From Dehalococcoidia bacterium UBA7891 (lineage in GTDB: Bacteria; Chloroflexota; Dehalococcoidia; Lucifugimonadales; UBA826), in contig DLRJ01000062.1 of the NCBI GenBank assembly GCA_002500485.1, forward strand, positions 577-64,576: DNA of 64,000 nt, in the 5' to 3' direction. The position numbers and the translations under genes were made by a program. Positions 4,292 to 59,073 of the stretch are shown in pieces. The notes under the pieces were generated by a model, which made no database searches, was not told where the DNA came from, and worked only from the letters and a program-made list of their open reading frames with translations. Numbering within the stretch: position 1 is the stretch's first letter; each line of letters opens with the position of its first letter.

Positions 4292-5332
4292 ATGGTTAAA
4301 TCGGTTTTAACGGTCATTGGGGAAAATATTCATACAACCCGTGTCTTACGCACCAACGGTAAAAGGGTCATCAGAAAAGAAAATGGAGATGAATATGTCA
4401 TTTATAAGAACATAGATGGCATCACTTCCTTTATGCCGATACCTGATTCTTTCAGAGACACTCAAGTTTACAAGCAAGGAAACGTAAAGCATTTCATGAT
4501 AGCCGTAACTCTTGGTATGTCTAATTCAGATGAAGATAGGATTCATGGCGAGAGCTACATCTCAGCAGAAATAAAACGTCAAGAAGATAGAGGTAGTAAT
4601 TTTCTAGATTTAAATGTTGACGAGATCTCTTACAAAATTGATATTCAAAAAAGGGCGATGGCATGGTTAATTGGCCACTATTCGTCAGTCGCAAAATTAC
4701 CGCCATGTATAGATTCTTCTAGTGTCGAAATAATTCAGCACGGCTTAGAATGTTATCGGAGTGTTGGTTCACCGCAAGGTCCCCCTATGATAAATTCAGC
4801 TTCATTAGAAAGGATTTCAGTTTTAGATCTTGTTACTGAAAATAATGCGACAGCGATTGTAACGGCGAGTGGTATCGATTCTATGCCTAGTGAAATCTCA
4901 GACCGCATATCCAATGTGTCCCAGATGATAAAACAATGTTTGGAAAGAGAAATCCCCCTATCACGAATCTACTTGGATGCTCTGGTATTCCCTATAGCCG
5001 TAGATCAGAACTTCGGCAATCATTATCTTGGAGCAGTTGGCCAAATCCGCGAACGATTTGGAGAGAAAATTCATATAACTGGAGGATTGAGTAACGTCTC
5101 TTTTGGGCTTCCATCGAGAAAATTAATTAATGACACTTTCATTAGACTTTCGATTGAGTCGGGGGTAGATGCAGCTATATTGAATCCTGTTGAAAGTGAT
5201 GTGGAAAGAATATTCGCCCTAGATATGGAATCTGAACGGGTACAAACCACAATTAATATGCTTTTAGGCAAAGATGAATATTGCACGAATTTTCTTAGTA
5301 AGTATAGGTCGGGTAAACTCACCGAGATTTAG
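4292..5332 (+). CDS. Pterin-binding (DHPS-like) domain protein, methyl-THF:corrinoid methyltransferase-like
   Basis: Motifs GENIHTTR, LDLNVDE and ITGGLSNVSFGLP are typical of the MetH/AcsE/MtrH pterin-binding barrel. ATG 4292 follows GGAGG at 4282-4286. Confidence 0.6.
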   Translation: MVKSVLTVIGENIHTTRVLRTNGKRVIRKENGDEYVIYKNIDGITSFMPIPDSFRDTQVYKQGNVKHFMIAVTLGMSNSDEDRIHGESYISAEIKRQEDRGSNFLDLNVDEISYKIDIQKRAMAWLIGHYSSVAKLPPCIDSSSVEIIQHGLECYRSVGSPQGPPMINSASLERISVLDLVTENNATAIVTASGIDSMPSEISDRISNVSQMIKQCLEREIPLSRIYLDALVFPIAVDQNFGNHYLGAVGQIRERFGEKIHITGGLSNVSFGLPSRKLINDTFIRLSIESGVDAAILNPVESDVERIFALDMESERVQTTINMLLGKDEYCTNFLSKYRSGKLTEI

Positions 5333-5383
5333 TATTGGTTCAAGTCGTTTTTGCGTGCCTGCATATAAAAATATATATGGCTT

Positions 5384-5411
5384 TTGACATGCGCAACCCG
5401 CTTGGTATACT
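5384..5411 (+). promoter_or_regulatory. Candidate sigma70-type promoter for the DUF1800 operon
   Basis: TTGACA (5384-5389), a 16-nt spacer, then TATACT (5406-5411), about 60 nt upstream of ATG 5471. Confidence 0.35.
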
Positions 5412-5470
5412 CATGCCAATAAAAAACTCACATTTCAAGAAAACACACTGAGATCGGGGGAGGCAAAAAT

Positions 5471-6919
5471 ATGACAACAGTTCATTCTAGGCAAGAGGCA
5501 TTGTTAATGGCTCACCTTCTGAGAAGGGCTGGATTTGGAGCAACTCCATATGAAATGGATCGGGCTCTTAGCATGGGATATCAAGCTGTTCTTGATGATT
5601 TGTTGAACCCGGACCACCCCGATGTCATACCGGATGATTTGATAAGGAGATACCACGTTGACCAGTCTGACTTACGCAGTGGCGGAGGTGCGCATTGGGT
5701 ATATAGGCTAGTCATGACTGATACTCCATTGCGAGAAAAAATTTGTCTTTTTTGGCATAGGGTGTTTGCCACTGGTACAACCAAACTCATTCAAAACAGA
5801 GTCGTTACAAATCAGATAGATATGTTTAGAGAACATGGAATGGGGCGGTTCGATGATCTTCTTGTAGAACTGTCTAGAGACCCAGCAATGATTATGTGGT
5901 TGGACAATCAGGACAACCACGGGTCCAATATTAATGAAAACTACGGTAGGGAAATTTTAGAATTATTCTCAATGGGAGTTGGCAACTACTCTGAAGATGA
6001 TATAAAAGAGACTGCGAGAGCCTTCACAGGATGGAGAGTTGTTAACCCCGATTATATGTCCATCAGAATGCGAAATAATACAGCTAGACCCTACGGATAC
6101 ATGTCCTGGCAATTTGAATACGATGACGATGATCATGACGATGGAGAAAAGATAATTCTGGGTCAAAAAGGAAAATGGAACGGGGAAGATGCTGTCAGAA
6201 TAATTTGCGAACAGGATGCGACGGCTAGATTTGTAGCTCGGCATCTATATCATTTTTTCGTTGCTGACGAATTGCCTGTGCCACAGTGGCCGCATGAAGA
6301 GCCAAGAGATCCAGAAGCTATCGATGTTTTATGTAAATCTTATTTTGAAAACAACCATGATATCGGAGCAATGCTGAGAACCTTATTTGAATCTGATTTT
6401 TTCAAAGATGCTGGGTCAAGATACGCTCGAATAAAGAGCCCTTCGGAGATGGTCATAGGCACAATGCGTTTGGCTGGTCCAATTGATCTTCCTTCTGAGG
6501 AAACTTACATGGCGGATGCTGCATGCGCCAACATGGGACAGGCATTGATGCGTCCACCAAGTGTGGAGGGATGGCAAGGGGGAACTGAATGGATTAATAC
6601 CGGTGCCTATGTCGAAAGGGTCAATTTCGCTGGGCGTATTTTGAATGATTCTGACAAGCAAGGTGTTCGCGATATCATAGATCGAATAAAGGCATTGTCG
6701 GACCGACAAACCATTACATCAGATGAACTAGTTGATAATTGCCTAGAGGTTTTAGGGCCTTTGGAGGTACTTGATACAACTCGTCACGGTTTAAAAAACT
6801 ACGCTTCTAAATTTGGTGATTTGAAATGGTCAGATCAGTCTCTAAGTAGTGAATTTGATCGTGCGGCTGTTGCTATTATTCAACTCGTTGTATCAAGTCA
6901 AGAATATCAAACTATTTAA
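5471..6919 (+). CDS. DUF1800-family protein (no signal peptide)
   Basis: N-terminal HLLRRAGFGATP. Motifs NENYGREILELFSMGVG..Y.E.DI.E.ARAFTGW and PPSVEGW are typical of DUF1800. RBS GGGGGAGG. Confidence 0.75.
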   Translation: MTTVHSRQEALLMAHLLRRAGFGATPYEMDRALSMGYQAVLDDLLNPDHPDVIPDDLIRRYHVDQSDLRSGGGAHWVYRLVMTDTPLREKICLFWHRVFATGTTKLIQNRVVTNQIDMFREHGMGRFDDLLVELSRDPAMIMWLDNQDNHGSNINENYGREILELFSMGVGNYSEDDIKETARAFTGWRVVNPDYMSIRMRNNTARPYGYMSWQFEYDDDDHDDGEKIILGQKGKWNGEDAVRIICEQDATARFVARHLYHFFVADELPVPQWPHEEPRDPEAIDVLCKSYFENNHDIGAMLRTLFESDFFKDAGSRYARIKSPSEMVIGTMRLAGPIDLPSEETYMADAACANMGQALMRPPSVEGWQGGTEWINTGAYVERVNFAGRILNDSDKQGVRDIIDRIKALSDRQTITSDELVDNCLEVLGPLEVLDTTRHGLKNYASKFGDLKWSDQSLSSEFDRAAVAIIQLVVSSQEYQTI

Positions 6920-6937
6920 GGTATTGAGAGGAAAAAC

Positions 6938-7936
6938 ATGACTACAACTACCTTTGGATTGAAATATGTGACTAATGTTGGATTCGCTGCCGATTTCGGA
7001 GGCAGAGGTTTTCAACTACCTTCATCAATGGCGATAAGAGCCGATGGGGTCATATTTGTTGTCAGTCGAGGAAAATCCTCTACCAAAAACTCCAATGGTA
7101 TACAGATGGTTACTAAGAACCACGACTTCCTAGGCCAGATCGGTACTTATGGAGCTGGCCTAGGAGGAATGATGTGGCCAACTTCTGTGGTTCTCGATAG
7201 TGATGAAAATCTGTATCTTGCGGACGAATATTTTAATAAAGTGACCAAATATGATCGTGAAGGTAACCCACTCACAGAATGGGGAACTAAAGGTTCTGGT
7301 AACGGACAATTTAATCAACCGAGTGGGTTATTGATTCAGGATCAACTGATATATTTGGTTGATTCAAGAAACAACAGAATTCAAATGTACAGCTTGGATG
7401 GAGACTTCCAAGGTCAGTGGGGCTCAGAAGGTGATGGGGAAGGAGAATTCAATATACCCTGGGGTATATCTGACGACTCTGAGGGTAATATTTATGTCGC
7501 TGACTGGCGTAACGACCGAATTCAAAAATTCGATTCAAATGGGAATTACATATCTGCTATTGGGGAGGGGGATACCTCTGTTCTAGATCGACCTTCTGAT
7601 GTTGCCGTGGATCCAGATGGGAATATTTATGTCACAGATTGGGGCAGTCAGCGTCTATTGGTTTTAGACCAATCGGGCAGCATTTTGGAAACTAAAAGAG
7701 GTGAAGCTGATTTAAATCCGTGGTCAATGGAATATTTGTCCTCCCAAGACGATGAAAGGAAAGCAAGAGAATCATTTATTCCAGTCTACAAAGCTGATAC
7801 CGAGGATCCTTCTGAGGTGTCTGCCAGAATGGAACCCTATTTCTGGGATCCTGTTGCAGTAGAACTGGACCAAGATGGAACGGTGTATGTACTTGAGACC
7901 GGTAGGCACCGATTTCAAATTTTCGAAAGAATTTAA
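6938..7936 (+). CDS. NHL-repeat beta-propeller protein
   Basis: Repeated units of the type G.G.G.FN.P.G...D..G.IYV.D..N.RIQ.F occur about 5-6 times. RBS GAGAGGAAAA. Confidence 0.8.
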   Translation: MTTTTFGLKYVTNVGFAADFGGRGFQLPSSMAIRADGVIFVVSRGKSSTKNSNGIQMVTKNHDFLGQIGTYGAGLGGMMWPTSVVLDSDENLYLADEYFNKVTKYDREGNPLTEWGTKGSGNGQFNQPSGLLIQDQLIYLVDSRNNRIQMYSLDGDFQGQWGSEGDGEGEFNIPWGISDDSEGNIYVADWRNDRIQKFDSNGNYISAIGEGDTSVLDRPSDVAVDPDGNIYVTDWGSQRLLVLDQSGSILETKRGEADLNPWSMEYLSSQDDERKARESFIPVYKADTEDPSEVSARMEPYFWDPVAVELDQDGTVYVLETGRHRFQIFERI

Positions 7937-7975
7937 TAGAATGGTCAACATACATATAGGGAAGAGGAGAACAAT

Positions 7976-9097
7976 ATGGGTGAAAAAAAAATAGTCGTTG
8001 TCCAGTTATCGGGAGGTAACGATTACCTTAATTGTGTGATTCCATATGACAATCCACATTATGTGGACAATCGTCCCAATGTGCGGATAACAGAGGATAG
8101 GGTGATACCAATAGGAGATGGCTTAGGCTTTAACCCGGTTATGAGCCTTATTAAGGATTTGTATGATCAAGGTAAAGTTGCGGTGATTCACGGGGTGGGA
8201 TATCCCGAGCCAAACAGATCTCACTTTAGGTCTATGGATATTTGGCACACCGCAGAACCAACCAAAGTTGGTAATGAAGGCTGGTTAGGGAATGCTATAA
8301 ACCAAATGTATCCAAAGCATGACAATGTGGTTGCAGCCGTTAATTTCGGTGCTGGACTACCACGGGCACTGGTATCCCATGGAGCCCCTGTGGCATCGGT
8401 GACAGATTTGAACACTTATGGCCTTATGAACCATGTCAGTGAGCTAGACCAACGAAATGAGGCCCTTCAGGCATTTAAAGACATGTACTCGCAAGCAATT
8501 GGGAGTGGTCCGGTTATGGACTACCTAAGCCAGACGGGCCTTGATGCTTTGAAAGGTGCAGAGATAATAGGTGGTGTGACCGATAAGTACTCCTCAGATG
8601 TTGAATACGCTGAAAATTCGTTTGCAAAATCAATGAAAGGAGCAGCCCAAATTTTACAGGCTGATATTGGCACTAGGATTTGCTATACCCAGCATGGTAG
8701 CTTCGACGCCCACACGAATGGGATTGCCCTTCAAGAAGGTTTATTGACCGATGTGTCTGGTGGAATATACGATTTTTATGACGATATGAAGAGGGCAAAT
8801 AAAAGTGACGATGTAATTATGTTTGTTTTCACAGAATTTGGAAGAAGGGTCAAAGACAATGGCAATGGTACAGATCATGGGTCTGGAGGTGTTGCGTTTG
8901 TCATTGGGGATCAGGTAGACGGAGGTCAGTACAGTGAATACCCTTCCCTCGCCGCTGACCAACTCCTGGAAGGCGATTTGAGATTTAATTTGGACTTTCG
9001 GAGCGTATATACGGAGATTTTAGAAGATTGGTTGGAAATTGATGCTAGTTCAGTGGTTAAAGGCGAATATGAGAAGGTCGGATTTCTAAAAAACTAG
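7976..9097 (+). CDS. DUF1501-family protein (sulfatase/alkaline-phosphatase-like fold; no Tat or Sec signal)
   Basis: Motifs VVQLSGGNDYLN, GYPEPNRSHFRSMDIWHT and TEFGRRVKDNGNGTDHGSGG. The protein starts directly in the core domain. Confidence 0.8.
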   Translation: MGEKKIVVVQLSGGNDYLNCVIPYDNPHYVDNRPNVRITEDRVIPIGDGLGFNPVMSLIKDLYDQGKVAVIHGVGYPEPNRSHFRSMDIWHTAEPTKVGNEGWLGNAINQMYPKHDNVVAAVNFGAGLPRALVSHGAPVASVTDLNTYGLMNHVSELDQRNEALQAFKDMYSQAIGSGPVMDYLSQTGLDALKGAEIIGGVTDKYSSDVEYAENSFAKSMKGAAQILQADIGTRICYTQHGSFDAHTNGIALQEGLLTDVSGGIYDFYDDMKRANKSDDVIMFVFTEFGRRVKDNGNGTDHGSGGVAFVIGDQVDGGQYSEYPSLAADQLLEGDLRFNLDFRSVYTEILEDWLEIDASSVVKGEYEKVGFLKN

Positions 9098-13448: not shown

Positions 13449-13486
13449 CCTGTGATCGGAGAAGTATCTAGAATTGGAGTGTGATA

Positions 13487-14308
13487 ATGGCTTATACGGA
13501 TCTAGGACTAAAGCAGGACGGTGCAGTCCTTAAGATAACAGTTGATCGACCTGAAGTTTTGAATGCTCAGAGTAGGATAATGCGAGAAGAACTTGATGAT
13601 GCATTTGATAAAGCAGCAGATGATGAATCAGTTAAGGTGGTGATCATTGCAGGGGCAGGGTCTAATTTCTCTGCAGGTCATGACTTGGGTAGCCCTCAAG
13701 AAATGGCTGATCGAGAAAAACGCCCTTATCAACCGGGTACAGCAGGAGAGTACGAAAGGAGTTGGCAACAAAATGTGGCGAACACATTCAGGTGGAGAGA
13801 TTTTCCCAAACCAACAATAGCTCAGGTTCAAGGGGTATGTATTATGGGAGGAATAATTTTGGCTTCATCTTGTGATCTAATTGTTGCCTCGGAGGATGCT
13901 CGCTTTAGTGATAGAACGGTGAGGTGGGGAGGCCCGCACGTCCAATATCTAAGTCTTCCCTACGAAATTGGAGTACGAAAGGCAAAGGAATACCTTTTCA
14001 CAGGGGATTGGATGACTGCTTCTGAAGCCGAAAAAATGGGACTTGTTAATAAAGTTGTGCCTATTGAGCAACTCGAGGAAGAGACTATGAAACTGGCTCA
14101 AAGAATAGCTTTGCAAGATGCCTTTGCTTTGAGATTATCCAAAGCGTCCCTGAATCAAGTACAGGATCAGATGGGCTATCGGAATAGCATTATGTCTGGG
14201 TTTCATAATCACGCCTTAGGACTGTCATACAGGCGTGAGATTTATGATGGTGAAAGAGTCACCTCGATTGATCGCGCCAGAGAGCGTGATAAAAAGTTTG
14301 GTGATTGA
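13487..14308 (+). CDS. Enoyl-CoA hydratase/isomerase (crotonase) family protein
   Basis: LNAQS.., VVIIAGAGSNFSAGHDL, and the GVCIMGG oxyanion-hole region. ATG 13487 follows GGAG at 13476-13479. Confidence 0.85.
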   Translation: MAYTDLGLKQDGAVLKITVDRPEVLNAQSRIMREELDDAFDKAADDESVKVVIIAGAGSNFSAGHDLGSPQEMADREKRPYQPGTAGEYERSWQQNVANTFRWRDFPKPTIAQVQGVCIMGGIILASSCDLIVASEDARFSDRTVRWGGPHVQYLSLPYEIGVRKAKEYLFTGDWMTASEAEKMGLVNKVVPIEQLEEETMKLAQRIALQDAFALRLSKASLNQVQDQMGYRNSIMSGFHNHALGLSYRREIYDGERVTSIDRARERDKKFGD

Positions 14309-14313: not shown

Positions 14314-16722
14314 ATGGCGCCATTTTCTAATTTGAAGGTCTTGGATTTGTCGGCTGATTTTGCTGGTAGTTACTGCAGCAAATTGCTTAGTGATTTTGGT
14401 GCTTCCGTCAAAAAGATCATATATGAGGGACGAGAAGATCGTTCTGCTTTATATGGACCGTTCATCAACGAAATTCGAGATCCAAAGTCAAGCGCGATGT
14501 TCCATTATATGAATTACAACAAACAGGTTATTCCAGTATCCAAAGAGACACAGACAATTGAGGAATTGGCACTTTCAGCGGATCTATTAATTGAGGATTT
14601 TTCAAGTGAGGACTTTAATTTAACTGGGTTAGATTTAGAAAATATACGTAAATTAAACCCGGATATTCTAATTTGCTCTTTGACCCCCTTTGGGAGAAAT
14701 ACTAAATGGACAGGAAAACCTTGGAGCGACCTAACTATTCAGGCTTTAACAGGTATGTGCAGTGTAAACGGAGAGCAGGGTAAAGCTCCTTTAAAGGAAC
14801 CAGGTACGGAAAGTGAGTTTATAACTGGAGCAAACGCATTCGTAGCTTCTGTAGCTTCCTTAATCAACCGAGATGTAACAGGGATTGGGCAAGAAGTGAA
14901 TGTATCTATTCTGAAATCTGTTTTACATAGTTATAGTCCATATTTGTTAGGGGCACTTCATACCAGAAACCCTCGGGGACAGCAGCCACAAGGACTCCAT
15001 TTTGGCCTGATACCTTGCAAAGATGGGTATGTATCCCTCAGTGTGCGTCATGAACCTACATGGGAACATATGTGGCTATTTTTTGGGGACCCTGAATTCT
15101 CAGAAAACCCGAAGTTCGATACAGCCGCTAAAAGACGTAATAATGAAGATGAGCTTTCGGAAATTCTTTTGCCAATACTTGCGCAATACTCTCGTAAGGA
15201 TCTCCTTCACGGTTTGAGTCCTCTTCGGATATTGGTTGGCATCGCCAATTCAGTATCAGATTTACTGGAAGATGAGCACCTTAAAACAAGGAATGCTTTT
15301 GTAAGATATGGTAGCGAAGGCAAATCATGGGAAATGCCGGGACCTCCTTTCCAGATGTCTTTAACACCATGGAAATTTGAACCCTTACCTACTTCGGAAG
15401 ATTTTCAAATTTGGGATAACCCAATGAAAGTCACACATAATACCTCTAAAAGTTTAGATACGGGCAATAAAACAAAAGGACCCCTTTCTGGGATGAGAGG
15501 GATTGTGTTAACACAGGCCTGGGCTGGAGCCTACAGCACCCAACTGCTCTCAGATCTAGGCATGGAAATTATTCAGGTTGAATCTATTACCCGGATAGAT
15601 CCTTGGAGAGGAGGGGTTCCTCCAAGGTTGGCAGGCTTGTATCCAGATACTAACCCTGGAGATAATCCTTGGGATAGAAATGCTCTTTACAATGGTGTAA
15701 ATAGAGGTAAGAAAGCTATAACTCTTGACCTAGCCCAGTCAGAAGCAAAAGACGTATTTATGGAACTTGTTTCAATAAGTGATGTCGTAGTAGAGAACTT
15801 TTCCGGTAGAGTAATAAGTAATCTGGGACTGAATTACGAATCTCTTAGGTCGGTTAATCCCTCAATTGTCATGGTTAGAATGCCAACTTATGGGACAAGC
15901 GGACCTTACTCAAATTACCCTGGTAATGGAGGAACTACAGAACCTGTCTCCGGCATGTCATTCCTCATGGGATACCATGATGGACCTCCTATAAATTCTG
16001 GCATAATGCATACTGATGCTTATAGCGGTGTATTAGCATGCGGTGCCGCAATAACTGCCTTGAGGGAAAGGTTAATGTCTGGAGTGGGTCAAGAAGTAGA
16101 TATTTCCCAACAAGAGGTGAGCATGACATTATTGGCCGAATATATTATGGAGGGGTCAATATCAGGGGAATCTCCTGGAAGACAGGGCAATACCAACAGG
16201 GACTACGCTCCTCAAGGATGTTATCTTTCAAAGGATTCTTATTGGATAGCCATTTCTGTGAAAACAGACCGTCAATGGGAATCTTTTTGTAATTCGCTAA
16301 TGCTGGATGATTTGATCACCGATGAAGATTATTCCACCAAAGATGTTAGGAAAATAAATTCGGTTCGGTTGGATCAAGAAATATCAAAGAATATGGCTAA
16401 TTTGGTAGCAAGTGAAGTCGTGGAAAATTTACAGGCTGAGTCAGTGCCATGTGAATTTATTTCCACTTTATTGGAAGCCGCTGAAAATGATGACTTTCAT
16501 CAAATGGAATTATTTGAACAGATATTTCATTTGAAGTCAGGGAATTTCTATTACCCAGTGCCTCCTTGGGATTTTGAAAATAATTCTCGAAAACCTCAAG
16601 AACCAGCCCCAACATTAGGGGAGCATTCTGACGAAATTTTCAGTAGCCTCAATGGATGGTCTGAGAGTGAAATAGCCCGATTTCAGAGCCTTGGATTAAC
16701 TGGTACAGATCCTTTGATTTAA
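14314..16722 (+). CDS. Tandem fusion of two family III CoA-transferase domains in one polypeptide
   Basis: Domain 1 has LKVLDLSADFAGSYCSKLLSDFGASV; its catalytic-position context is TESEFITG (Glu, codon 14815-14817). Domain 2 begins after ~aa 390 with GPLSGMRGIVLTQAWAGAYSTQLLSDLGMEIIQVE. It has MHTDAYSG (Asp) and C-terminal APTLGEHSDEIF. Confidence 0.8.
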   Translation: MAPFSNLKVLDLSADFAGSYCSKLLSDFGASVKKIIYEGREDRSALYGPFINEIRDPKSSAMFHYMNYNKQVIPVSKETQTIEELALSADLLIEDFSSEDFNLTGLDLENIRKLNPDILICSLTPFGRNTKWTGKPWSDLTIQALTGMCSVNGEQGKAPLKEPGTESEFITGANAFVASVASLINRDVTGIGQEVNVSILKSVLHSYSPYLLGALHTRNPRGQQPQGLHFGLIPCKDGYVSLSVRHEPTWEHMWLFFGDPEFSENPKFDTAAKRRNNEDELSEILLPILAQYSRKDLLHGLSPLRILVGIANSVSDLLEDEHLKTRNAFVRYGSEGKSWEMPGPPFQMSLTPWKFEPLPTSEDFQIWDNPMKVTHNTSKSLDTGNKTKGPLSGMRGIVLTQAWAGAYSTQLLSDLGMEIIQVESITRIDPWRGGVPPRLAGLYPDTNPGDNPWDRNALYNGVNRGKKAITLDLAQSEAKDVFMELVSISDVVVENFSGRVISNLGLNYESLRSVNPSIVMVRMPTYGTSGPYSNYPGNGGTTEPVSGMSFLMGYHDGPPINSGIMHTDAYSGVLACGAAITALRERLMSGVGQEVDISQQEVSMTLLAEYIMEGSISGESPGRQGNTNRDYAPQGCYLSKDSYWIAISVKTDRQWESFCNSLMLDDLITDEDYSTKDVRKINSVRLDQEISKNMANLVASEVVENLQAESVPCEFISTLLEAAENDDFHQMELFEQIFHLKSGNFYYPVPPWDFENNSRKPQEPAPTLGEHSDEIFSSLNGWSESEIARFQSLGLTGTDPLI

Positions 16723-16736: not shown

Positions 16737-17942
16737 ATGATGACTCAACATAAAATAAATACACATCTGACTGACGTAATTGCTAAGGCTTCAGAGATTT
16801 CTGAAATTACTGATGAAGAGGCACTTTTACTTTCTCGCTACTCAGAAGATCATCTGGGTGATTTGTGTGGTGCTGCAGCAAAGATTAGAAATCATGGAAA
16901 AGGGACAACGGTTACTTTTTCCCCAAAAGTTTTTATCCCTCTGACCAGGTTATGCCGCGATTACTGCGGATACTGCACGTTTAGAATAGACCCAGACCAA
17001 GCGCAAAGTCTTTACATGAGTGCAGTAGAGGTGCTTGATGTGGCCAAACAAGGGGAAAATCTAGGCTGTACCGAAGCATTATTTACCCTCGGAGAAAGGC
17101 CAGAACAGAAGTACCCGGAAGCGAAGGAATGGCTTTCAAATAATGGTTATGACAGTACTCTTGATTATCTGGGTGCCATGACTGAACTTGTAGTTAAAGA
17201 GACCAGGCTTTTGCCTCACGCGAATCCCGGTACCATGACTCACAGAGAGCTAAATGTTTTAAAAGACTCTAATCCCTCTACTGGCATAATGCTGGAAAGT
17301 ACCAGCGAACTTTTATATCAAAAAGGCGGACCTCATGAATTTGCCCCTAGTAAAAGACCTATTGTTAGATTGAAGACAATTTCAATAGCAGGTGAATTAA
17401 GAATTCCATTCACTACCGGCCTTCTTATTGGGATAGGTGAAACGATGTTGGACAGAATAGAATCCCTACTGGAAATCAGAAGCCTACACCGAAAATATAA
17501 TCATATACAGGAAACAATAATTCAGAACTTCAGGGCAAAACCTGAGACCCCCATGGCAGAATCTCCAGATGCTGAAACACAAGAAATGCTCTGGACGGTC
17601 GCTGCGGCTCGTATTATTTTGGGGCCTCAAGCTAATATACAAGTGCCGCCAAACCTCAGTTCCGAGAATTACGAGATGTATTTGGCTGCAGGTATAAATG
17701 ATTGGGGTGGTGTTTCTCCTTTGACAATCGATTATGTTAATCCCGAAGCACCCTGGCCTCTCATAACCAATTTGAAATCAAAAACAGAGTCAGCGGGATT
17801 TGAATTGCGACCAAGGTTAGCTGTATACCCAGAGTACTTTCTTGATACTACTGAATACTTACCGGTAGACTTGTTGACGAAGGTACGAGAATTGGCTGAT
17901 GATGAAGGATATGTAAAGGAAGGTATTAACAGATATGTCTGA
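16737..17942 (+). CDS. cofG: FO synthase subunit 1 (7,8-didemethyl-8-hydroxy-5-deazariboflavin synthase, CofG), radical SAM
   Basis: CxxxCxxC cluster motif CRDYCGYCTF. Size and pairing with a second radical-SAM paralogue fit, and there is an 8-nt overlap with the next gene. Confidence 0.8.
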   Translation: MMTQHKINTHLTDVIAKASEISEITDEEALLLSRYSEDHLGDLCGAAAKIRNHGKGTTVTFSPKVFIPLTRLCRDYCGYCTFRIDPDQAQSLYMSAVEVLDVAKQGENLGCTEALFTLGERPEQKYPEAKEWLSNNGYDSTLDYLGAMTELVVKETRLLPHANPGTMTHRELNVLKDSNPSTGIMLESTSELLYQKGGPHEFAPSKRPIVRLKTISIAGELRIPFTTGLLIGIGETMLDRIESLLEIRSLHRKYNHIQETIIQNFRAKPETPMAESPDAETQEMLWTVAAARIILGPQANIQVPPNLSSENYEMYLAAGINDWGGVSPLTIDYVNPEAPWPLITNLKSKTESAGFELRPRLAVYPEYFLDTTEYLPVDLLTKVRELADDEGYVKEGINRYV

Positions 17943-19245
17943 TATTGAGGCACATGACATGGACATGGATTTTTCGGGCCTGCTGGGGTCAATAGATCCA
18001 GATATTTCCCGCGTCTTACGTGCGGCTATTTCTGGTGAAGATATTTCAGCATCGGACGCCTGCCTGCTTCTGGATTCTAATGGGTTAGAGTACAACGCTA
18101 CCGTGTTGGTTGCCGATGTTTTGCGTAGAAGGACTGTGGGAGATGTCGTCACATATGTTGTAAATAGAAACATTAATTTTACTAATGTATGTATAAAGAG
18201 ATGTGGATTTTGCGCATTTAGCAGAGATTTCAGAGAAGAACAAGGTTATCTATTACCAGTGGAGGAAATAGTCCGTCGCTCGAAAGAAGCGTGGGATTAT
18301 GGGGCTACTGAGGTATGTGTACAGGCAGGCCTACCACCTCAAATGGAAGGCGATTTATACATTCGACTATGTGAGGCGATAAAAGCTGAACTTCCTGATA
18401 TTCACATCCATGGATTTTCCCCAGAAGAGGTTCTTTATGGATCAATCCGATCCAAGACATCTATAAGGCAACACCTTAGTGATTTGAAAGACGCAGGTGT
18501 TGGAAGTTTACCCGGCACCTCAGCAGAGATATTGGATCAGGCCTTGAGGGATAAAATATCACCGGGTCGTATAACTAAAGATCAATGGATCGAGGTCATA
18601 ACCACAGCCCATGATCTGGGCATACAAACTACATCTACTGTGATGTTTGGGCACGTCGAGACAAATCTGCAAATTGCTGAACATATCGATATTATTCGGA
18701 ACATACAGATGGAAACGGGTGGGTTCACAGAATTCGTACCATTGAGTTTTGTGAATTCTGAGGCCCCTATGTTTCTTAAAGGGCTAATCCCTAATGTTAG
18801 GACTGGACCCACCGGTATGGATGTGGTGAAGGTTCATGCTGTTGCGAGGATTATGTTGAATAATTGGATACCAAACATTCAGGCCTCTTGGGTTAAAGAG
18901 GGAGACAGAATCTCTCAATTACTTCTTACCGCAGGGGTAAATGATTTAGGTGGCACTTTGATTAACGAAAGTATTTCTACATCCGCAGGGGCGCAACATG
19001 GCCAGCTGATGAAGCCTTCACAGTTCAGAGATATGATACGGGATGCAGGAAGGTTGCCGGCAGAAAGATTCACAAATTATAGTTTGAGAAAGGTATATGA
19101 TAAATCGGATAACGAGAAAGACCCATTAGATCTATTGGAAGATAACGTAGAGGAAATATTTGGCTCGTACAATAAACTTATTGGGATGGAAAATTTCCGA
19201 TTCGAACACCCACGTAAGGCCGCAGAAAGGACTGCTAGTGTATGA
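17935..19245 (+). CDS. cofH: FO synthase subunit 2 (CofH), radical SAM
   Basis: CIKRCGFCAF motif. The start ATG overlaps the cofG stop (ATGTCTGA, 17935-17942). Confidence 0.8.
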   Translation: MSDIEAHDMDMDFSGLLGSIDPDISRVLRAAISGEDISASDACLLLDSNGLEYNATVLVADVLRRRTVGDVVTYVVNRNINFTNVCIKRCGFCAFSRDFREEQGYLLPVEEIVRRSKEAWDYGATEVCVQAGLPPQMEGDLYIRLCEAIKAELPDIHIHGFSPEEVLYGSIRSKTSIRQHLSDLKDAGVGSLPGTSAEILDQALRDKISPGRITKDQWIEVITTAHDLGIQTTSTVMFGHVETNLQIAEHIDIIRNIQMETGGFTEFVPLSFVNSEAPMFLKGLIPNVRTGPTGMDVVKVHAVARIMLNNWIPNIQASWVKEGDRISQLLLTAGVNDLGGTLINESISTSAGAQHGQLMKPSQFRDMIRDAGRLPAERFTNYSLRKVYDKSDNEKDPLDLLEDNVEEIFGSYNKLIGMENFRFEHPRKAAERTASV

Positions 19246-21743: not shown

Positions 21744-22802
21744 ATGAAAATAGCAGTACGATCATTTAGTGGTGTTAGGTCTGACTTATCTTGGTCTGAT
21801 CCTTCGGATTGGAATCAAATAGCAGATTTTGCAAAGGAAGCTGAATCTTTAGGGGCTGATTCGATATGGACCTCCGAAGCTTGGGGGACCGACGCGATCA
21901 CCCCTCTGGCTTATTTGGCTGCTTCCACAACAAAGATACGGTTGGGTACGGGGATTGTTCAGGTCGGTAGTCGGACCCCAGGTAATTTGGTAATGACTAG
22001 CTTGACTTTGCAATCTATGTCGGGTGGTAGATTTATTCTTGGGCTGGGTACTAGTGGGCCACAAGTTATAGAAGGATTTCACGGCGTGACTTTTGGCAAT
22101 CCTGTACTAAGAACGAAGGAACTATTGGAAATTATCAAAATGGGTGTGTCCGGGGAAAAGCTCCAGTATCAAGGAAAATACTATCAATTACCCTTGGATG
22201 GCGGAGAAGGTAAGTCCATAAGAACCAGCGCTAAAACTTGGCATGTTCCAGTATATGTGGCTTCTCTTGGTCCTAGCAATTTAGAAATGACTGGTGAAAA
22301 GGCCGATGGATGGATAGGAGGTTGTTTTATCCCAGAAACAGGAAACGTTTTTCTGGATAAAATCAAAGAAGGGCTCTTTCGTTCTGGTAGAAGTATTGAA
22401 GACATAGATATATTGATACCAGTTTCCTTAGATTTCACCGATGACGTTGAAGAAACAGCAAAAAGACATGCTCGTGGATATGGATTTACCTTTGGGGCAA
22501 TGGGGTCAGTGAAGAACAATTTTTACAAGAATGCGTATGCAAGACAAGGTTATGGCGAGATTGTAGATGTTGTCCAAAAATTGTGGGTTGAAGGGAGAAG
22601 AGAAGAGGCTCGAGATATGGTACCTAATGAGCTTGCTTTGAAATCCAATTTAATTGGAACAGATAAAATGATTAAGGAAAGACTTTTACTCTATAAGAAT
22701 CTGGGTGTTAGTACTCTTAAAGTTGATTTACCTGGTGACGATATTGCTAGTAAAAGCGATGCTTTAGGAAGGCTAATGGATCTTGTTTCTGATTTGGATT
22801 AA
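21744..22802 (+). CDS. LLM-class (luciferase-like) oxidoreductase, probably F420-dependent
   Basis: SIWTSEAWGTDAITPLAYLAA..IRLGTGIVQV..RTP and LGLGTSGPQVIEGFHGV resemble the F420-dependent LLM subgroup. Confidence 0.7.
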   Translation: MKIAVRSFSGVRSDLSWSDPSDWNQIADFAKEAESLGADSIWTSEAWGTDAITPLAYLAASTTKIRLGTGIVQVGSRTPGNLVMTSLTLQSMSGGRFILGLGTSGPQVIEGFHGVTFGNPVLRTKELLEIIKMGVSGEKLQYQGKYYQLPLDGGEGKSIRTSAKTWHVPVYVASLGPSNLEMTGEKADGWIGGCFIPETGNVFLDKIKEGLFRSGRSIEDIDILIPVSLDFTDDVEETAKRHARGYGFTFGAMGSVKNNFYKNAYARQGYGEIVDVVQKLWVEGRREEARDMVPNELALKSNLIGTDKMIKERLLLYKNLGVSTLKVDLPGDDIASKSDALGRLMDLVSDLD

Positions 22803-22807
22803 CAGAT

Positions 22808-23848
22808 ATGAGGCTAGCACTTTTCACACATATGTCGTGGCCAGAGGGAGTGAATCAGACTTCGGTGTTTCATGATTCAGTTGAACAGGTTAAGTTAGCT
22901 GAATCTATGGGATACCACGGAGCATGGTTCGCAGAACATCACTTCACTAGATACAGTATGGGTTCTTCTGTGTTGCTAATGCTTGGGCATTTGGCGGCAG
23001 TGACAGAGAAAATACGTTTGGGGACCGCAGTAATTGTTCCAAACTTGCATAATCCTATCAGGATTGCTGAGGACTCAGCCCTTGTAGATCTCCTAAGCCG
23101 AGGACGTCTAGATGTTGGGTTCGGAAGAGGTACATATGGTTATGAATATGGTGGTTTTGGAGTTCCCGCGGAAGATAGCCAATCTAGGTTTAGAGAAACC
23201 GTCCTAGCAGTACGGGATTTATGGTGTGATAAAGATGTAAGTGTCGACAGCCCTTTTTTTTCTGTTCGCAATGTGGATTTGGTTCCATCTGTTGTTCAGT
23301 CACCTCATCCTCCTATATATATAGCTGCAACGAGGTCTGAAGAGACCTTGGATTTTATGATTTCAAACCAGTTTCTTTTATGTATAGCGGTTGTTCAAGA
23401 TACAGATGCTGCGCTTGCTTTGGTAGAAAAATATAGAAGATTATGTCACCTGAAGGATCAATCGGATCATATGGATGAAGTGCCGTTTTTTCGGTATGTT
23501 CATGTGGCTGATACGGAGAGAAAGGCTCTTGATAACACCAAAAAACATGTAGATTGGATACAGGATATTATGCAATGGCGTAGGAACTTAGTGGGTACTA
23601 CTGAGGTTCATTTACCCATAAAAAAATGGAGGAATGAGCGAGATGAGTTACCACCAGATAACCGCTATATCTCTGGGAAAAGAGCATTTATAGGAACACC
23701 TGAGGCTGTCGCTGAAAAAATCATTTCTCTAAAAGATCACGGAATTTCGTATTTCGGATGCAATTTTGCGATGGGAGGACTCCCTCAGGAAGAGGTAATT
23801 AAGTCAATGAAATTGTTCGAAAAGAAAGTGATACCTTTAATTTCATGA
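22808..23848 (+). CDS. LLM-class flavin-dependent monooxygenase (luciferase-like)
   Basis: AWFAEHHFTRYS, IRLGTAV and GRLDVGFGRG motifs. A 5-nt gap to the preceding LLM gene. Confidence 0.75.
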   Translation: MRLALFTHMSWPEGVNQTSVFHDSVEQVKLAESMGYHGAWFAEHHFTRYSMGSSVLLMLGHLAAVTEKIRLGTAVIVPNLHNPIRIAEDSALVDLLSRGRLDVGFGRGTYGYEYGGFGVPAEDSQSRFRETVLAVRDLWCDKDVSVDSPFFSVRNVDLVPSVVQSPHPPIYIAATRSEETLDFMISNQFLLCIAVVQDTDAALALVEKYRRLCHLKDQSDHMDEVPFFRYVHVADTERKALDNTKKHVDWIQDIMQWRRNLVGTTEVHLPIKKWRNERDELPPDNRYISGKRAFIGTPEAVAEKIISLKDHGISYFGCNFAMGGLPQEEVIKSMKLFEKKVIPLIS

Positions 23849-36207: not shown

Positions 36208-37236
36208 TTAAGTTACTTCTAAAGTAGGGTTTCGCAAAGGTCCTGCGTACTGAGTTTGGTCTAGTTCTATGAAGTCTTTTTGATAAACTTGGATTCTGTA
36301 AGATTCAAAATCAGGTATATACAATCTGAAGTCATCGTCAATTCTCACTGATCGGGGTCTTCTCAAAAATTTTTCAGACTCGAGCTTTCCCATTTCCCTT
36401 AACCGGTTTGGAACAGCGTTGGTCAACATATAATTCCGGGCTACCTTCGATAAAGTGGCGTCACCATAAAAACTCCATATGTACTGACCCTTTGAATTGT
36501 ACATAAGAACTCTGTTATTACCCCAGTCTGCCACATAAAAATCCCCGTGGTTGTCTACAGTAATGCCGGTTGGTCTATTGAATTGTCCATTACCACTTCC
36601 AAATTCACCCACAACGTTTTTGAGATCACCATCTGGCGAAAAAATTTGTACTCTGTGATTACCCCAATCAGAAATATATATATCTCCACTCTCATCACAA
36701 TCCACACCCCATGGAAGATTAAATTGACCAGGTTCCGAGCCATAGGAACCAAAGGAATTTATATATTCACCATCTTTTGTGTATCTCTGTATCCGACTAT
36801 TTTTCGAATCACATATTATGAAATGTTCGTTAATGTCCAATGCAAAACCTGATGGGCCATCGAATTCTCCTTCACCTTGACCATGCCTGCCGAATTTGCT
36901 TATGAACCCACCGTCTGGATCAAATTTGCTTATCCTGTGATTGGCTTCATCACTGATGAATATGTTTCCTGAATCGTCCGTAATTATGTTGACAGGCCAT
37001 CTCAGTTGCCCATCTTCACATCCGAAATTACCAAATCCTTTTAGCTCATCTGTGAGTTCTTCCATATCGTCTCGAGACCAGATTCGGATGGTGGCGACAC
37101 CTTCTGATCTAAGCAACACATATAAAATATTTTCCTCGCCAAATGCGATATCTGTAGGAAAATTGGTTACTCGTCTCATTCCTAAAGTTGTGGAATACGG
37201 ATAACCTGCTCTCAATAGGCCATGTGGTCGAGTCAT
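36208..37236 (-). CDS. NHL-repeat beta-propeller protein (paralogue of 6938..7936)
   Basis: Repeated G.G.GQF..P.G...D..G..Y..D..N.R.Q units. Clear similarity to the first NHL protein. Confidence 0.8.
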   Translation of the reverse strand: MTRPHGLLRAGYPYSTTLGMRRVTNFPTDIAFGEENILYVLLRSEGVATIRIWSRDDMEELTDELKGFGNFGCEDGQLRWPVNIITDDSGNIFISDEANHRISKFDPDGGFISKFGRHGQGEGEFDGPSGFALDINEHFIICDSKNSRIQRYTKDGEYINSFGSYGSEPGQFNLPWGVDCDESGDIYISDWGNHRVQIFSPDGDLKNVVGEFGSGNGQFNRPTGITVDNHGDFYVADWGNNRVLMYNSKGQYIWSFYGDATLSKVARNYMLTNAVPNRLREMGKLESEKFLRRPRSVRIDDDFRLYIPDFESYRIQVYQKDFIELDQTQYAGPLRNPTLEVT

Positions 37237-37254
37237 CGTAGGTCTCCTAATGTG

Positions 37255-38391
37255 TTAGATATAGAAAGGTTTTATCTGCTCGAATTCGCCTTTTACAATT
37301 GGCTTCGCATCGAGCCCTAACCACTGCTCTAATACGGTGCCATATATTCCACGGAAATCTATAGTGTGCTTTAAATCCTCTCCATGCTCCCAGTCGTTAG
37401 GATTTAAGGAGGGATATTCGGAATAAAGTCCTCCTTTCACATTATTACCAATTAGAAAAGCTCCCCCACCTGATCCATGATCTGTACCACTACCGTTGTC
37501 TCGCATTCGTCTACCAAATTCTGTGAAGACCAGAATGGCAACATCGTCGGCCGCATCATGTTCTTTAAGATCATCCATAAAGTCAGAAATGGCTCCACTC
37601 AGATCACTCAATAACTTGGGATGTGTAGGCATTTCATTGGCATGGGTATCGTATCCACCATGGTTGGTATAAAAGACCCTGGTTCCTAAATTAGCAAAAT
37701 GTACCCGAGCCACGTCTCTCAAACTTTTAGCTATAGAGTTGTCGGCATATTCCACAGAGGATTTGTACTGAGTGGCCACATTTGCCAGTAAGTCGGCCCC
37801 TTTTAAGACATCTAATCCGGTTTTCCCGATATATTCGGCTACCTGCCCACTTCCGATAGCTTGCCCGTAAATATCTTTGAAGGCTTGCAAGGATCTTTCC
37901 TTTAAGCGCTCTTGTTCTATTTTGTTCATCACCCCATAGCCTTCCAAATCTCCTACTGAAGTTATAGGTACTCCTGCAACAGACATAGCCCTGGGTAGCC
38001 CTTGGCCTATATTAACTCCGGTGAGGACATTTTCACTTTTAGGGTCTAGGTCCCTGATGGCCAACCCCAACCATCCTTCACTACCAACTCTGTCAGGTTC
38101 GCACGTATGCCATATATCCATTCCACGAAAATGAGATCTGTTTGAGTTTGGATATCCAATTCCTTGAACTATAGCCACCTTTCCTTCATCAAATAGTCTT
38201 TTCAAAGGCCTGGCATTATTGTTGATAGCTAATTCTTCGTTAATGGGTAGTACATCAGTTTGAGTTATTACAATTTTCTTTCGAGCATCGTAATAATGTT
38301 CGTTGTTATAAGGGACTATGGTATTTATAAAATCGTTACCGCCAGTCAATTGGATTACGACAAGCGTTTTTTCTTTAGCTTCAGTGACCAT
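37255..38391 (-). CDS. DUF1501-family protein (paralogue of 7976..9097; no signal peptide)
   Basis: VVIQLTGGNDFIN, GYPNSNRSHFRGMDIWHT and TEFGRRMRDNGSGTDHGSGG. Confidence 0.8.
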   Translation of the reverse strand: MVTEAKEKTLVVIQLTGGNDFINTIVPYNNEHYYDARKKIVITQTDVLPINEELAINNNARPLKRLFDEGKVAIVQGIGYPNSNRSHFRGMDIWHTCEPDRVGSEGWLGLAIRDLDPKSENVLTGVNIGQGLPRAMSVAGVPITSVGDLEGYGVMNKIEQERLKERSLQAFKDIYGQAIGSGQVAEYIGKTGLDVLKGADLLANVATQYKSSVEYADNSIAKSLRDVARVHFANLGTRVFYTNHGGYDTHANEMPTHPKLLSDLSGAISDFMDDLKEHDAADDVAILVFTEFGRRMRDNGSGTDHGSGGGAFLIGNNVKGGLYSEYPSLNPNDWEHGEDLKHTIDFRGIYGTVLEQWLGLDAKPIVKGEFEQIKPFYI

Positions 38392-38413
38392 ATTAGTTCC
38401 CTCTCCTTATGCT

Positions 38414-57879: not shown

Positions 57880-59073
57880 CTAGGTGAATACTACTTCAGA
57901 GTCGACCATTTTTTTGATTTCATCGGCAGAGTAGCCAATTTCTCTTAGGATATTTTCAGAGTGTGCCCCTGGAATTGTCCCAAGGTTTCGGACCGCCCCT
58001 GGAGTATCTGTAAGCTTTGAACCAAACCCTACTTGAGTTATGACTGCTCCATCCACGCTACCTGCCTCAATGAACATGTTTCTAGCTTTCATGTGTGGAT
58101 CATCTAGAACCTCATTGAACTCATAGACAGGTGCTGCCGCCACATCTTCGGCTTCCCTGAATATATCCCACCATTCATCTCTCTTTTTGGTTTTAAACGT
58201 GGCTTCTAACTCACGCATTATCAATTGGTATTCATGCTCATTGTGCTGGCTGCTGGCAAATTGTTCCAAATTTAGTGTGGAGCAAAGATTTTTCCAGAAA
58301 TTAGGTTCGATACAGCCAAGGCTAATGTATTTACCATCCTGACATTCAAAAACATTGTAATAAGGGACACCACCATTTAATGTCATCTGACCAGGCTTTG
58401 GGATTAGCCCAGAATTAAAATATTCTCCTGATATGGCTGATAACAGGTAGGTGACGCCGTCTGACATTGAGGTGTCTATTTTTTGTCCTCTGCCGGTGTT
58501 TGTTCTGGAAAAAAGAGCACAAACGATTGAATAAGCCGCATTCATACCTCCGGCTGCGAAATCTGCAATAAGGTTATATGGGATTGAAGGCGTACCATTT
58601 TTGCTGCCAATTAATCCTAAAGCCCCACCCACGGAGATATAGTTCACATCATGTCCCACTAAATCCTTGTATGGTCCAGTCTGCCCATAGCCGGATATAG
58701 AACAATAAATTATTGAAGGATTAATCTCTTTAATGGTTTCATAATTACAACCCAGTCTGGTTACTACCTCAGGTCTGAATCCTTCAATAAAAACATCGGC
58801 TTTTTGGCAAAGTTGATGCAATATTTTTATTCCATCTTTTTCCTTTAAATCTAATACTATGCTTCTTTTATTTCGGTTTAATGGGTTGCTTGCCGCTTTT
58901 TTGCGGGTTTCTGCGTCATTAATGATTTTGGAAGCTATTATTCTGGATGTAGGAGGTGCTTCAACTTTTATAACGTCGGCCCCCATATCACCAAGCATCA
59001 TCGAACAAAATGGTCCTGGGGCCATTCTGCTTAAATCAACGATTTTTACTCCATCTAATGCGCCTTTCGTCAT
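57880..59073 (-). CDS. Family III CoA-transferase superfamily, alpha-methylacyl-CoA-racemase-like
   Basis: VKIVDLSRMAPGPFCSMMLGDMGADVIKVE. GHDVNYISVGGAL plus NLIADFAAGG match the MCR His/Asp pair context. The ATG overlaps the upstream stop by 1 nt (TGATG). Confidence 0.8.
   Translation of the reverse strand: MTKGALDGVKIVDLSRMAPGPFCSMMLGDMGADVIKVEAPPTSRIIASKIINDAETRKKAASNPLNRNKRSIVLDLKEKDGIKILHQLCQKADVFIEGFRPEVVTRLGCNYETIKEINPSIIYCSISGYGQTGPYKDLVGHDVNYISVGGALGLIGSKNGTPSIPYNLIADFAAGGMNAAYSIVCALFSRTNTGRGQKIDTSMSDGVTYLLSAISGEYFNSGLIPKPGQMTLNGGVPYYNVFECQDGKYISLGCIEPNFWKNLCSTLNLEQFASSQHNEHEYQLIMRELEATFKTKKRDEWWDIFREAEDVAAAPVYEFNEVLDDPHMKARNMFIEAGSVDGAVITQVGFGSKLTDTPGAVRNLGTIPGAHSENILREIGYSADEIKKMVDSEVVFT

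Follow-up and report, generated by a model that had tools for sequence, protein, structure and literature searches.

A crotonase-linked gene with two CaiB-type halves

The window, by which we mean the whole 64,000-nucleotide stretch of DNA analysed here, carries an uninterrupted ORF that translates from its ATG into a protein of 802 aa, and the features of this ORF and its flanks are collected in Table 1. The Pfam profile CoA_transf_3 (PF02515) matched the protein in two stretches with 496.7 bits (cut-off 23.3), which places it among the family III CoA-transferases, and whole chains of solved members of this family matched the first half (aa 3 to about 350) and the second half (aa about 390 to 795) separately. 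Both the profile count and the structural matches thus bear out the original prediction that two CaiB-type domains lie in one chain. The protein scored 153.5 bits with the CaiB equivalog model (NCBIfam NF002914), below the cut-off of 413.

Table 1. Features of the transferase gene and its flanks, in window coordinates
Feature	Position	Strand	Basis or remarks
Crotonase-fold (ECH_1) gene, NCBIfam NF006140/PRK08290 subfamily	13481..14308	+	Pfam ECH_1 2.5e-44; NF006140 293.6 bits vs cut-off 280
Two-domain (fused) family III CoA-transferase	14314..16722	+	802 aa plus stop
N half, aa 1-350, complete CaiB-type unit (large and small domain) lacking the catalytic Asp; putative non-catalytic, BbsEF chain-A-like partner	14314..15363	+	4ed9_A 2e-33, 9fn0_A 6e-22; degenerate Asp column
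Glu168 codon GAG, catalytic-Asp column of N half	14815..14817	+	HMMER alignments
Linker, aa 351-389, in place of the canonical C-terminal tail of N half	15364..15480	+	Poor conservation, predicted disorder
C half, aa 390-802, complete CaiB-type domain with canonical tail (APTLGEHSDEIF...); predicted catalytic half	15481..16719	+	9fn0_B 5.9e-43; Foldseek
Asp568 codon GAT, predicted catalytic nucleophile	16015..16017	+	Aligned with Asp178 of 9fn0_B
cofG/cofH	16737-19245	+ (plus-strand gene string of the original prediction)	Downstream of transferase

The annotation of both flanks agrees with the predicted position of the gene between a crotonase gene and cofG/cofH. The stop codon of the crotonase gene and the ATG of the transferase gene are 5 nt apart. 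Of 58 ORFs scored as fused, among them some N-like genes from split pairs, 43 had a same-strand ECH gene at most 300 bp away. The adjacency was also found at four further loci (L001–L004) and in Variovorax (Proteobacteria), and it is kept down to about 30% identity; the crotonase is a conserved operon partner of the transferase. ECH and CaiB genes are numerous in SAR202 genomes, and some adjacency could arise by chance; the tight same-strand pairing at 30% identity argues against this. The partner crotonase carries Ile, Met or Leu at the column of the textbook hydratase Glu. The other neighbours of the transferase gene are ABC-2 transporter genes, a CaiB paralogue and an enolase-superfamily gene. 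Downstream cofG/cofH was found in relatives with at least 77% identity and in one with 52% (L012), and it was absent beside the 54%, 42% and 31–33% homologues examined. A functional unit of cofG/cofH or F420 with the transferase was accordingly rejected, and this arrangement is local synteny only.

Fused and split relatives of the transferase gene

The same full-length 802-aa ORF was found in more than 100 proteins, on independent contigs from different projects, at 88–94% identity, and 39 fused genes were counted among species-representative genomes. Two separate adjacent genes do occur in related genomes, as an assembly or frameshift artefact joining neighbouring genes would require; however, the uninterrupted ORF on more than 100 independent contigs speaks against such an error, and the linker lacks both the tail and the start signals found in the split forms. 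We therefore rejected this explanation, whose probability we regard as negligible. Among the best 150 representatives, most were 760–880 aa long and most aligned over about residues 1–800 of the query, and the window protein aligned collinearly over its full length with well over 100 clusters of two-domain proteins of ~800 aa. A second profile search started from an alignment (A1) of 20 fused homologues that are 33–94% identical to the window protein; it recovered, in essence, the same set of close relatives, with P0121 as the sole addition. Plasmid-borne fused homologues were found in Variovorax, Bosea and Rhodococcus.

An unfused version was present in 31 related genomes, where a crotonase gene is followed by an N-like gene and then by a C-like gene. 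Such trios occur in Dehalococcoidia and Anaerolineae (e.g. L029, L041, L047 and L079) at 35–48% identity to the window protein, and the ends of the N-like and C-like genes overlap by a few bases. At least six transitions between the fused and the split state were counted on a tree, a number that is indicative because the tree was made by neighbour-joining without support values.

The claim that the first domain lacks the C-terminal tail and has a linker in its place also held. Half 1 ends with ...PGPPFQMSLTPWKFEPLP, without the LGEH tail, while its unfused relatives keep the full tail 'AP..GQHN.EVF..LG....L.R....G.V', which is partly kept in P0115–P0117 as well. The linker, about 38 aa long, has the lowest conservation of any region (1.79 bits), and it is disordered in an AlphaFold2 model of the fused protein (pLDDT 84.6, pTM 0.92), in which pLDDT falls below 50 at residues 352–363 and 370–385. 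The best Foldseek matches of this model were whole subunits of solved interlocked dimers in the dimer conformation, with TM scores of up to 0.90 normalised to the target (9fn0_D/B).

The catalytic-Asp column in the two halves

HMMER alignments to 4ed9_A, 10uh_A and 9br7_A (afaDiftG, vamtDivaG and vamtDlatG, respectively) placed the second Glu of TESEF, Glu168, on the catalytic Asp column, as had been proposed by eye, and no Asp of domain 1 fell on this column. In domain 2, where an Asp had been predicted, Asp568 aligned by hand count with Asp178 of 9fn0_B, the BbsEF chain B residue named in the title of PDB entry 9fol ('D178-CoA adduct'). In the AlphaFold2 model, Glu168 and Asp568 occupy the third position of two equivalent long helices (H166–189 and H566–589, respectively). 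In family III enzymes generally, CoA transfer runs through aspartyl anhydride and thioester intermediates. The catalytic Asp of family III is thus present in the C half, and Glu168 takes its place in the N half.

The two columns differ in their conservation. Of 140 clusters of fused homologues (at most 50% identity), 139 had the C-half Asp, as did all 38 distinct fused genes in the loci and all 32 split C subunits. At the N-half column, the same 140 clusters carried E (34), Q (27), S (18), A (14), D (13), Y (8), G (8), H (5), L (5) and others; the crotonase-linked fused genes of species genomes carried E (12), S (7), Q (5) and A (2) there, with Asp at the C column in 26/26. Among the crotonase-adjacent fused homologues, Gln was found in P0105 (L001) and Ser in P0120 (L003) and P0121 (L004). 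Split N-like subunits, which keep the canonical tail, had S, Y, A, E, C, H, L or Q and never D, while the C-like subunits always had D. The question whether Glu is conserved in the N-domain clade has a divided answer, since Glu168 is fixed in the close clade of the window protein (at least 76% identity) and the column is degenerate across the wider family. Asp in both halves was found in 13 of the 140 clusters, and on this sequence evidence two-site enzymes do exist in the wider two-domain family. Another paralogue in the window (60329–61606) also has Glu at the Asp column.

As no other residue is as frequent as Glu at the N column (34/140 clusters and 12/26 crotonase-linked genes), an acid or amide side chain may have some role there. 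The original prediction was an obligate pseudo-heterodimer with two non-equivalent sites, either one catalytic and one regulatory or binding, or a two-substrate relay. On one alternative reading, both sites would be catalytic, with Glu168 as a second nucleophile like the Glu that family I CoA-transferases use (PMC9813914), and the single chain would be bifunctional or a two-site relay. The plurality of Glu at the column, its fixation in the close clade, the Glu of the 60329–61606 paralogue and the high conservation of family motifs in the N-half large domain (G29, A30, V32, K70 and G172) speak for such an enzyme, which we nevertheless judge improbable. In PtmU4, the substitutions D430A, D430E and D430N each lower activity 125–400-fold (PMC6006322), and a crystal structure exists of the D169E variant of Frc, an Asp169 mutant (PDB 1vgr). 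Furthermore, crotonase-adjacent fused homologues have Gln, Ser or Ala instead of Glu168, split N subunits lack Asp throughout, and chain A of BbsEF has Tyr at the same column. The Frc variant is reportedly inactive. Because the column is E, Q, S or A among crotonase-linked relatives, Glu168 is unlikely to be a nucleophile. What stands of the claim is a fused pseudo-heterodimer with two non-equivalent sites and with Asp only in its C half; a catalytic or relay role of the domain-1 Glu is not supported.

Conservation by region was compared in alignment A1. The C-half large domain (aa 390–598; 3.52 bits) and the N-half small domain (3.35 bits) were the most conserved, and the N-half large domain (2.76 bits) and the C-half small domain (2.54 bits) were lower. 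This pattern was absent from a broad paralogue set, in which the C-half small domain (2.06 bits) exceeded the N-half small domain (1.46 bits). Since the active sites of family III lie at the subunit interface beside the Rossmann fold (PMC9813914), the A1 pattern would fit one working site where the large domain of the C half meets the small domain of the N half, and we take it as suggestive only.

A single-site reading and its relation to known enzymes

We consider it likely that the window gene encodes a fused family III CoA-transferase of the heterodimeric BbsEF kind, with a single active site, that works together with the crotonase. Within one chain, the two halves most likely form the pair of interlocked rings that is typical of the family. 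A single canonical active site would centre on Asp568, where the last Rossmann helix of the C half begins, with the N-half small domain probably supplying the remainder. The pseudo-site around Glu168, which is related to it by symmetry, appears to be degenerate with a dispensable carboxylate, and its part is probably structural, or at most one in ligand binding. The transferase would probably move CoA from a donor thioester to a carboxylic acid, and we infer that the resulting acyl-CoA is then transformed by the crotonase encoded just upstream. By analogy with CaiB/CaiD, the two proteins would form a module that needs no ATP, in a SAR202 (Dehalococcoidia) genome with many such paralogues.

SAR202 genomes hold many CaiB paralogues, to which a part in oxidising recalcitrant marine organic matter has been ascribed. 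A wider reading, which we put forward tentatively and regard as possible though on balance doubtful, is that the pair is a self-contained module that recycles CoA without ATP, as CaiB/CaiD does, for an acid from marine dissolved organic matter, that the N-half pseudo-site (often Glu or Gln) is kept for specificity or ligand binding, and that the heterodimer was repeatedly fused or split during the evolution of Dehalococcoidia, with the changes counted on the neighbour-joining tree. If this is true, the family would be a natural series for the passage from an interlocked heterodimer to a single chain. In any case, the locus offers a concrete and testable case in which family III CoA-transferases have pseudo-enzyme halves and occur naturally in both fused and split form, and it defines a crotonase–transferase operon that is conserved in SAR202. 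The pairing in a cultured bacterium, Variovorax sp. SRS16 (WP_162571376.1 and WP_162571375.1), provides an experimental entry point.

The arrangement had been thought undescribed, which did not hold: two-domain enzymes with a conserved Asp in the C-terminal domain are a recognised class, with 2,401 homologues counted in 2017 (PMC6006322; PMC7174347), and the BbsEF heterodimer has been solved. A new enzyme architecture is therefore not at hand, since the fused two-domain form is already on record in large numbers, and two of its members, DddD and PtmU4, have been characterised (Dong et al. 2018). Compared with these by description, the window protein shares the tandem CaiB-type domains, the poorly conserved linker, the length of ~800 aa with full-length collinearity, and the Asp of the C-terminal domain (Asp568). 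It differs in its lineage (SAR202/Dehalococcoidia) and in its genomic partner, a crotonase in place of the ddd genes or the acyl-CoA synthetase. It is an ordinary member of a very large recognised class, notable only for its conserved crotonase partner.

Either characterised member could suggest a function. A DddD-type DMSP CoA-transferase/lyase that releases dimethyl sulfide would have the same two-CaiB-domain architecture (PMC7174347) and suit a marine organism, and a subset of SAR202 CaiB-type proteins has DddD as the top Swiss-Prot match (Landry et al.); this match says little, as DddD is probably the sole two-domain entry in Swiss-Prot. We hold this function to be very improbable, because the conserved partner is a crotonase, because a ddd-type neighbourhood (BCCT transporter, alcohol/aldehyde dehydrogenase pair, LysR regulator) is absent beside the transferase in the window, because DddD is an outgroup to the other two-domain enzymes (Dong et al., PMC6006322) and because DMSP is unlikely in the deep ocean according to Landry et al. 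NCBIfam gave no DddD model, and the cluster names were only generic ('CoA transferase' or 'CaiB-like'). A sulfur transferase of the PtmU4 type, which forms thiocarboxylic acids within a thioacid cassette, would likewise have two domains with Asp in the C-terminal one (PMC6006322), and we give it slightly less credence still. More than 90% of the members of the thioacid group, which are mostly from Actinobacteria and Proteobacteria, have an acyl-CoA synthetase (a PtmA3 homologue) at most two genes away (PMC6006322), whereas the genes flanking the window transferase include no AMP-binding enzyme and no sulfur-carrier protein.

The single-site reading is modelled on BbsEF, the succinyl-CoA:(R)-benzylsuccinate CoA-transferase (PDB 9fn0, 9fol and 9fun), and this comparison is based on PDB titles and on alignments made here, as no publication for 9fn0 was found. 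BbsEF likewise consists of two non-identical family III units, one with Asp (D178) and the other (9fn0_A) with Tyr171, which corresponds to Glu168 of the window protein. The N half of the window protein is chain-A-like and its C half chain-B-like, chain B being the best match of the C half in both structure and sequence (TM 0.90 normalised to the target; E 5.9e-43). In contrast, the best PDB match of the N half is 4ed9_A (2e-33) and not 9fn0_A (6e-22). BbsEF is made of two polypeptides encoded in the bbs operon for anaerobic toluene degradation, whereas the window protein is fused and only about 26% identical, and no bbs genes lie near its gene.

In E. coli, CaiB is a carnitine CoA-transferase and CaiD a crotonase-type carnitinyl-CoA dehydratase, and together they activate an acid, transform it and recycle CoA without ATP. 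As in this pair, the family III CoA-transferase gene of the window adjoins a crotonase-fold gene; however, CaiB forms a homodimer of single-domain subunits that both carry Asp, and the window crotonase belongs to the PRK08290 subfamily and not to CaiD. The split trios of Dehalococcoidia and Anaerolineae share with the window locus the gene order, the crotonase and an Asp restricted to the C-like subunit, and they differ in that the two subunits are encoded by separate genes and the N-like one keeps its tail where the window protein has a linker.

Architecture and distribution of the fused transferase

The transferase gene encodes an 802-aa protein, and an alternative TTG start at 14305 would lengthen its reading frame by three codons. 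Pfam CoA_transf_3 matched the protein in two stretches (496.7 bits), confirming the two domains that had been expected in a single chain. The C half (residues ~390–795) aligned over its entire length to complete family III subunits of solved structure, the best match being 9fn0_B (E 5.9e-43), a benzylsuccinate CoA-transferase subunit, and the N half (residues 3 to ~350) aligned separately with the whole subunits 4ed9_A (2e-33), 10uh_A, SUGCT and 9fn0_A (6e-22). The N half ends in ...PGPPFQMSLTPWKFEPLP and has no AP.LGEH... tail. In an AlphaFold2 model (pLDDT 84.6, pTM 0.92), residues 352–385, in the linker that takes the place of this tail, were predicted to be disordered, and the linker region was the least conserved of the whole protein. 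The best Foldseek matches of the model to full subunits reached TM 0.90, normalised to the target. Thus, the observations behind the original prediction, namely two CaiB-type halves, a Glu at the Asp column of the first half and a missing tail, were all correct.

Features of the window discussed in the text
Feature	Position	Strand	Remarks
DUF1800 / NHL beta-propeller / DUF1501 trio	5471-9097	+	
Crotonase (ECH_1)	13481-14308	+	NCBIfam NF006140, 293.6 bits vs cut-off 280
Two-domain CoA-transferase ORF	14314-16722	+	802 codons from ATG, no interruption
Glu168 codon GAG	14815-14817	+	catalytic Asp column, N half
Asp568 codon GAT	16015-16017	+	aligned to Asp178 of 9fn0_B
cofG + cofH	16737-19245		3' of transferase gene; TIGR03550 454.9 bits, TIGR03551 462.6 bits
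Two luciferase-like oxidoreductase genes	21744-23848	+	side by side, few kb 3' of cofG/cofH
DUF1800 / NHL beta-propeller / DUF1501 trio	36208-39832	-	member 38414-39832 assumed by position
Three tandem single-domain CaiB genes	57880-61606	-	60329-61606, 59073-60329, 57880-59076

More than 100 full-length proteins of 802 aa (88–94% identity) were found on independent marine metagenome contigs and in MAGs labelled SAR202, Chloroflexota or Dehalococcoidia. This rules out the assembly error or frameshift that could have joined two genes, and we regard an artefactual fusion as highly improbable. A scan of species-representative genomes returned 79 loci, mostly in Dehalococcoidia, with a fused gene in 39. 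Furthermore, the best 150 matches of an exhaustive HMMER search over 1.84 billion cluster representatives were almost exclusively 760–880 aa long, most of them collinear over ~1–800 of the query, and in a tblastn search, plasmids of Variovorax, Bosea, Rhodococcus and Neorhizobium carried fused copies annotated as 'CoA transferase'. The arrangement had been thought undescribed; however, the two-domain class was explicitly named by Dong et al., whose count of such homologues stood at 2,401 in 2017 and who added PtmU4 as the second characterised member after DddD (PMC6006322). DddD has two CaiB domains, at 1–416 and 439–821 (PMC7174347), and needs a catalytic aspartate (PMC4437653). The two-domain architecture is therefore common and was known before, and the window protein adds another member. 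Characterised fused homologues thus exist, an outcome that the original prediction had itself listed as counting against it. DddD was the best match for some SAR202 CaiB-type proteins (Landry et al., 2017; PMC5395668); we give a DddD-type DMSP lyase very little probability for the window gene, and a PtmU4-type thioacid cassette is similarly doubtful.

Glu168 and Asp568 at the catalytic column

The second Glu of T-E-S-E-F is residue 168 and shares its column with the catalytic Asp of other family III proteins (afaDiftG, vamtDivaG, vamtDlatG). Its counterpart Asp568 aligned to the residue named in the title of PDB entry 9fol, 'D178-CoA adduct'. In the AlphaFold2 model, Glu168 and Asp568 each occupy position three of a long helix, and the two helices (166–189 and 566–589) are equivalent; this placement matches the published place of the catalytic Asp in the last Rossmann-fold helix (PMC9813914). 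All retrieved fused proteins were aligned to a 20-homologue profile, and the two columns were read in 140 clusters that are mutually ≤50% identical. The C-half column was Asp in 139 of them, and the N-half column was E34, Q27, S18, A14, D13, Y8, G8, H5, L5 and others, with Glu and Gln together making up 44%. In the lineage of the window protein, Glu was fixed only to ~76% identity; relatives at 51–55% and at 41–42% carried Glu or Gln, and those at 31–33% Ser. Among 26 distinct crotonase-linked fused genes from species genomes, the N-half residue was E12, S7, Q5 and A2, and the C-half Asp was present in all 26. Since proteins with a common operon partner carry E, S, Q or A at this column, a carboxylate is not needed there in such proteins. 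Taken with the outcome of the Asp-to-Glu change in PtmU4, this variation speaks against a nucleophilic role of Glu168. The functional Glu of the original prediction was thus not borne out, and a second catalytic site at Glu168 seems most unlikely. Glu and Gln may be favoured at this column for structural reasons or for hydrogen bonding, and the N-half pseudo-site may bind a ligand. The one exception in the C-half column, P0265 (a two-domain homologue of 803 aa), is seemingly order-swapped, with the Asp motif 'VSYPDPLSG' in its N half and a degenerate 'ADQGAHLAG' in its C half.

Split relatives and fusion history

In 31 species-level genomes, two separate transferase genes come after the orthologous crotonase gene, first an N-like gene of ~400 aa and then a C-like gene of ~425 aa, and their ends abut or overlap. 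These split loci include L029–L062 (43–48% identity to the window protein) and L077–L083 (35–39%), a group to which Thermoflexus and Anaerolineaceae belong. The Asp column of the N-like subunits held S10, Y9, A6, E2, C2, H, L or Q and never Asp, and that of the C-like subunits held Asp in 32/32. Most N-like subunits retain the full canonical tail (e.g. 'PAPTIGQHNDEVF..LG..EELARLREEGVV'), and the fused proteins P0115–P0117 (~41% identity) keep a remnant, 'AP.LGEHN.EVF', ahead of the linker. The window protein is therefore a two-subunit enzyme joined into one chain; as Asp occurs only in the second subunit of the split relatives, that subunit alone would be catalytic. In a neighbour-joining tree of the C halves, built without support values, fused and split forms interleave, requiring at least six state changes by parsimony, which we read as no more than a hint of repeated fusion or fission.

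A small clade of C-like genes that bear the Asp but stand alone (L033, L034, L039, L043, L055, L059 and L061, at ~5000–6250 in each) shares 45–47% identity with the window's C half; neither an N-like gene nor a crotonase lies within 5 kb, and these genes may encode homodimeric relatives or have a partner encoded elsewhere. In addition, the related loci L002 (16164–18433, +) and L048 (8559–11060, -) carry second, divergent two-domain paralogues at a distance of a few kb from the window gene's orthologue, so two-domain forms are multi-copy in those genomes.

Crotonase partner, neighbouring genes and proposed mechanism

The crotonase gene stops 5 nt short of the transferase ATG, and GGTGA lies 9 nt upstream of that ATG. 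A same-strand crotonase orthologue was found <300 bp from 43 of the 58 ORFs counted as fused in the loci studied, a count that takes in some N-like genes of split pairs (upstream in 35, downstream in 8). This adjacency reaches relatives at 54%, 42%, 33% and 31% identity and the Variovorax plasmid copy. The window crotonase has Ile126 at the position of the textbook hydratase Glu in 'GGG-x-E-L', the reference motif of rat enoyl-CoA hydratase. Across 61 orthologues this column was I, M or L and never Glu, and 'FSAGHDLG' (63–70) was nearly invariant. The chemistry of this crotonase may be other than simple hydration.

cofG and cofH follow the transferase gene only in relatives at ≥77% identity and in one at 52%, and were set aside as neighbours rather than functional partners. 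The wider window also holds five further single-domain CaiB genes, luciferase-like F420-type oxidoreductases, an enolase-superfamily dehydratase and MFS transporters, a gene content typical of SAR202. The first gene of the luciferase-like pair resembles F420-dependent LLM families (TIGR03559, 297.6 bits, under the cut-off of 335). The three tandem CaiB genes overlap at their ends by 1–4 nt; the first transcribed carries Glu ('QAELVAG') at the catalytic Asp column, where the other two carry Asp, so that the trio looks like a second family III set of the UBA7891 genome, heteromeric but unfused. The DUF1800/NHL/DUF1501 trio also occurs in L002 (2785–6545), just 5' of the paired crotonase and fused-transferase genes of this 42%-identical relative.

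In the mechanism proposed here, the single chain would fold, in keeping with the AlphaFold2 model and its Foldseek matches, into an intramolecular interlocked pair with one active site, at Asp568, and a degenerate second site. Family III enzymes have their active sites at the subunit interface, beside the Rossmann fold (PMC9813914), so the N half would complete the Asp568 site. Consistent with this, conservation in the alignment of 20 fused homologues was highest, at 3.52 bits, in the C-half large domain, followed by 3.35 in the N-half small domain, and lower in the N-half large domain (2.76) and the C-half small domain (2.54). The pseudo-heterodimer with non-equivalent sites survives from the original prediction; its novelty does not. 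CoA would be moved from a donor thioester to an acid, and the resulting CoA ester would then be converted by the crotonase-fold enzyme. What remains of value is the crotonase–transferase operon, conserved in SAR202, and a series of fused and split forms that nature provides. The window protein resembles BbsEF, which also consists of two non-identical units with the catalytic Asp in the second-type unit only (in 9fn0, Asp178 of chain B corresponds to Tyr171 of chain A). The window protein is probably a single-site pseudo-heterodimeric CoA-transferase that feeds the crotonase, in analogy to the CaiB/CaiD pair.
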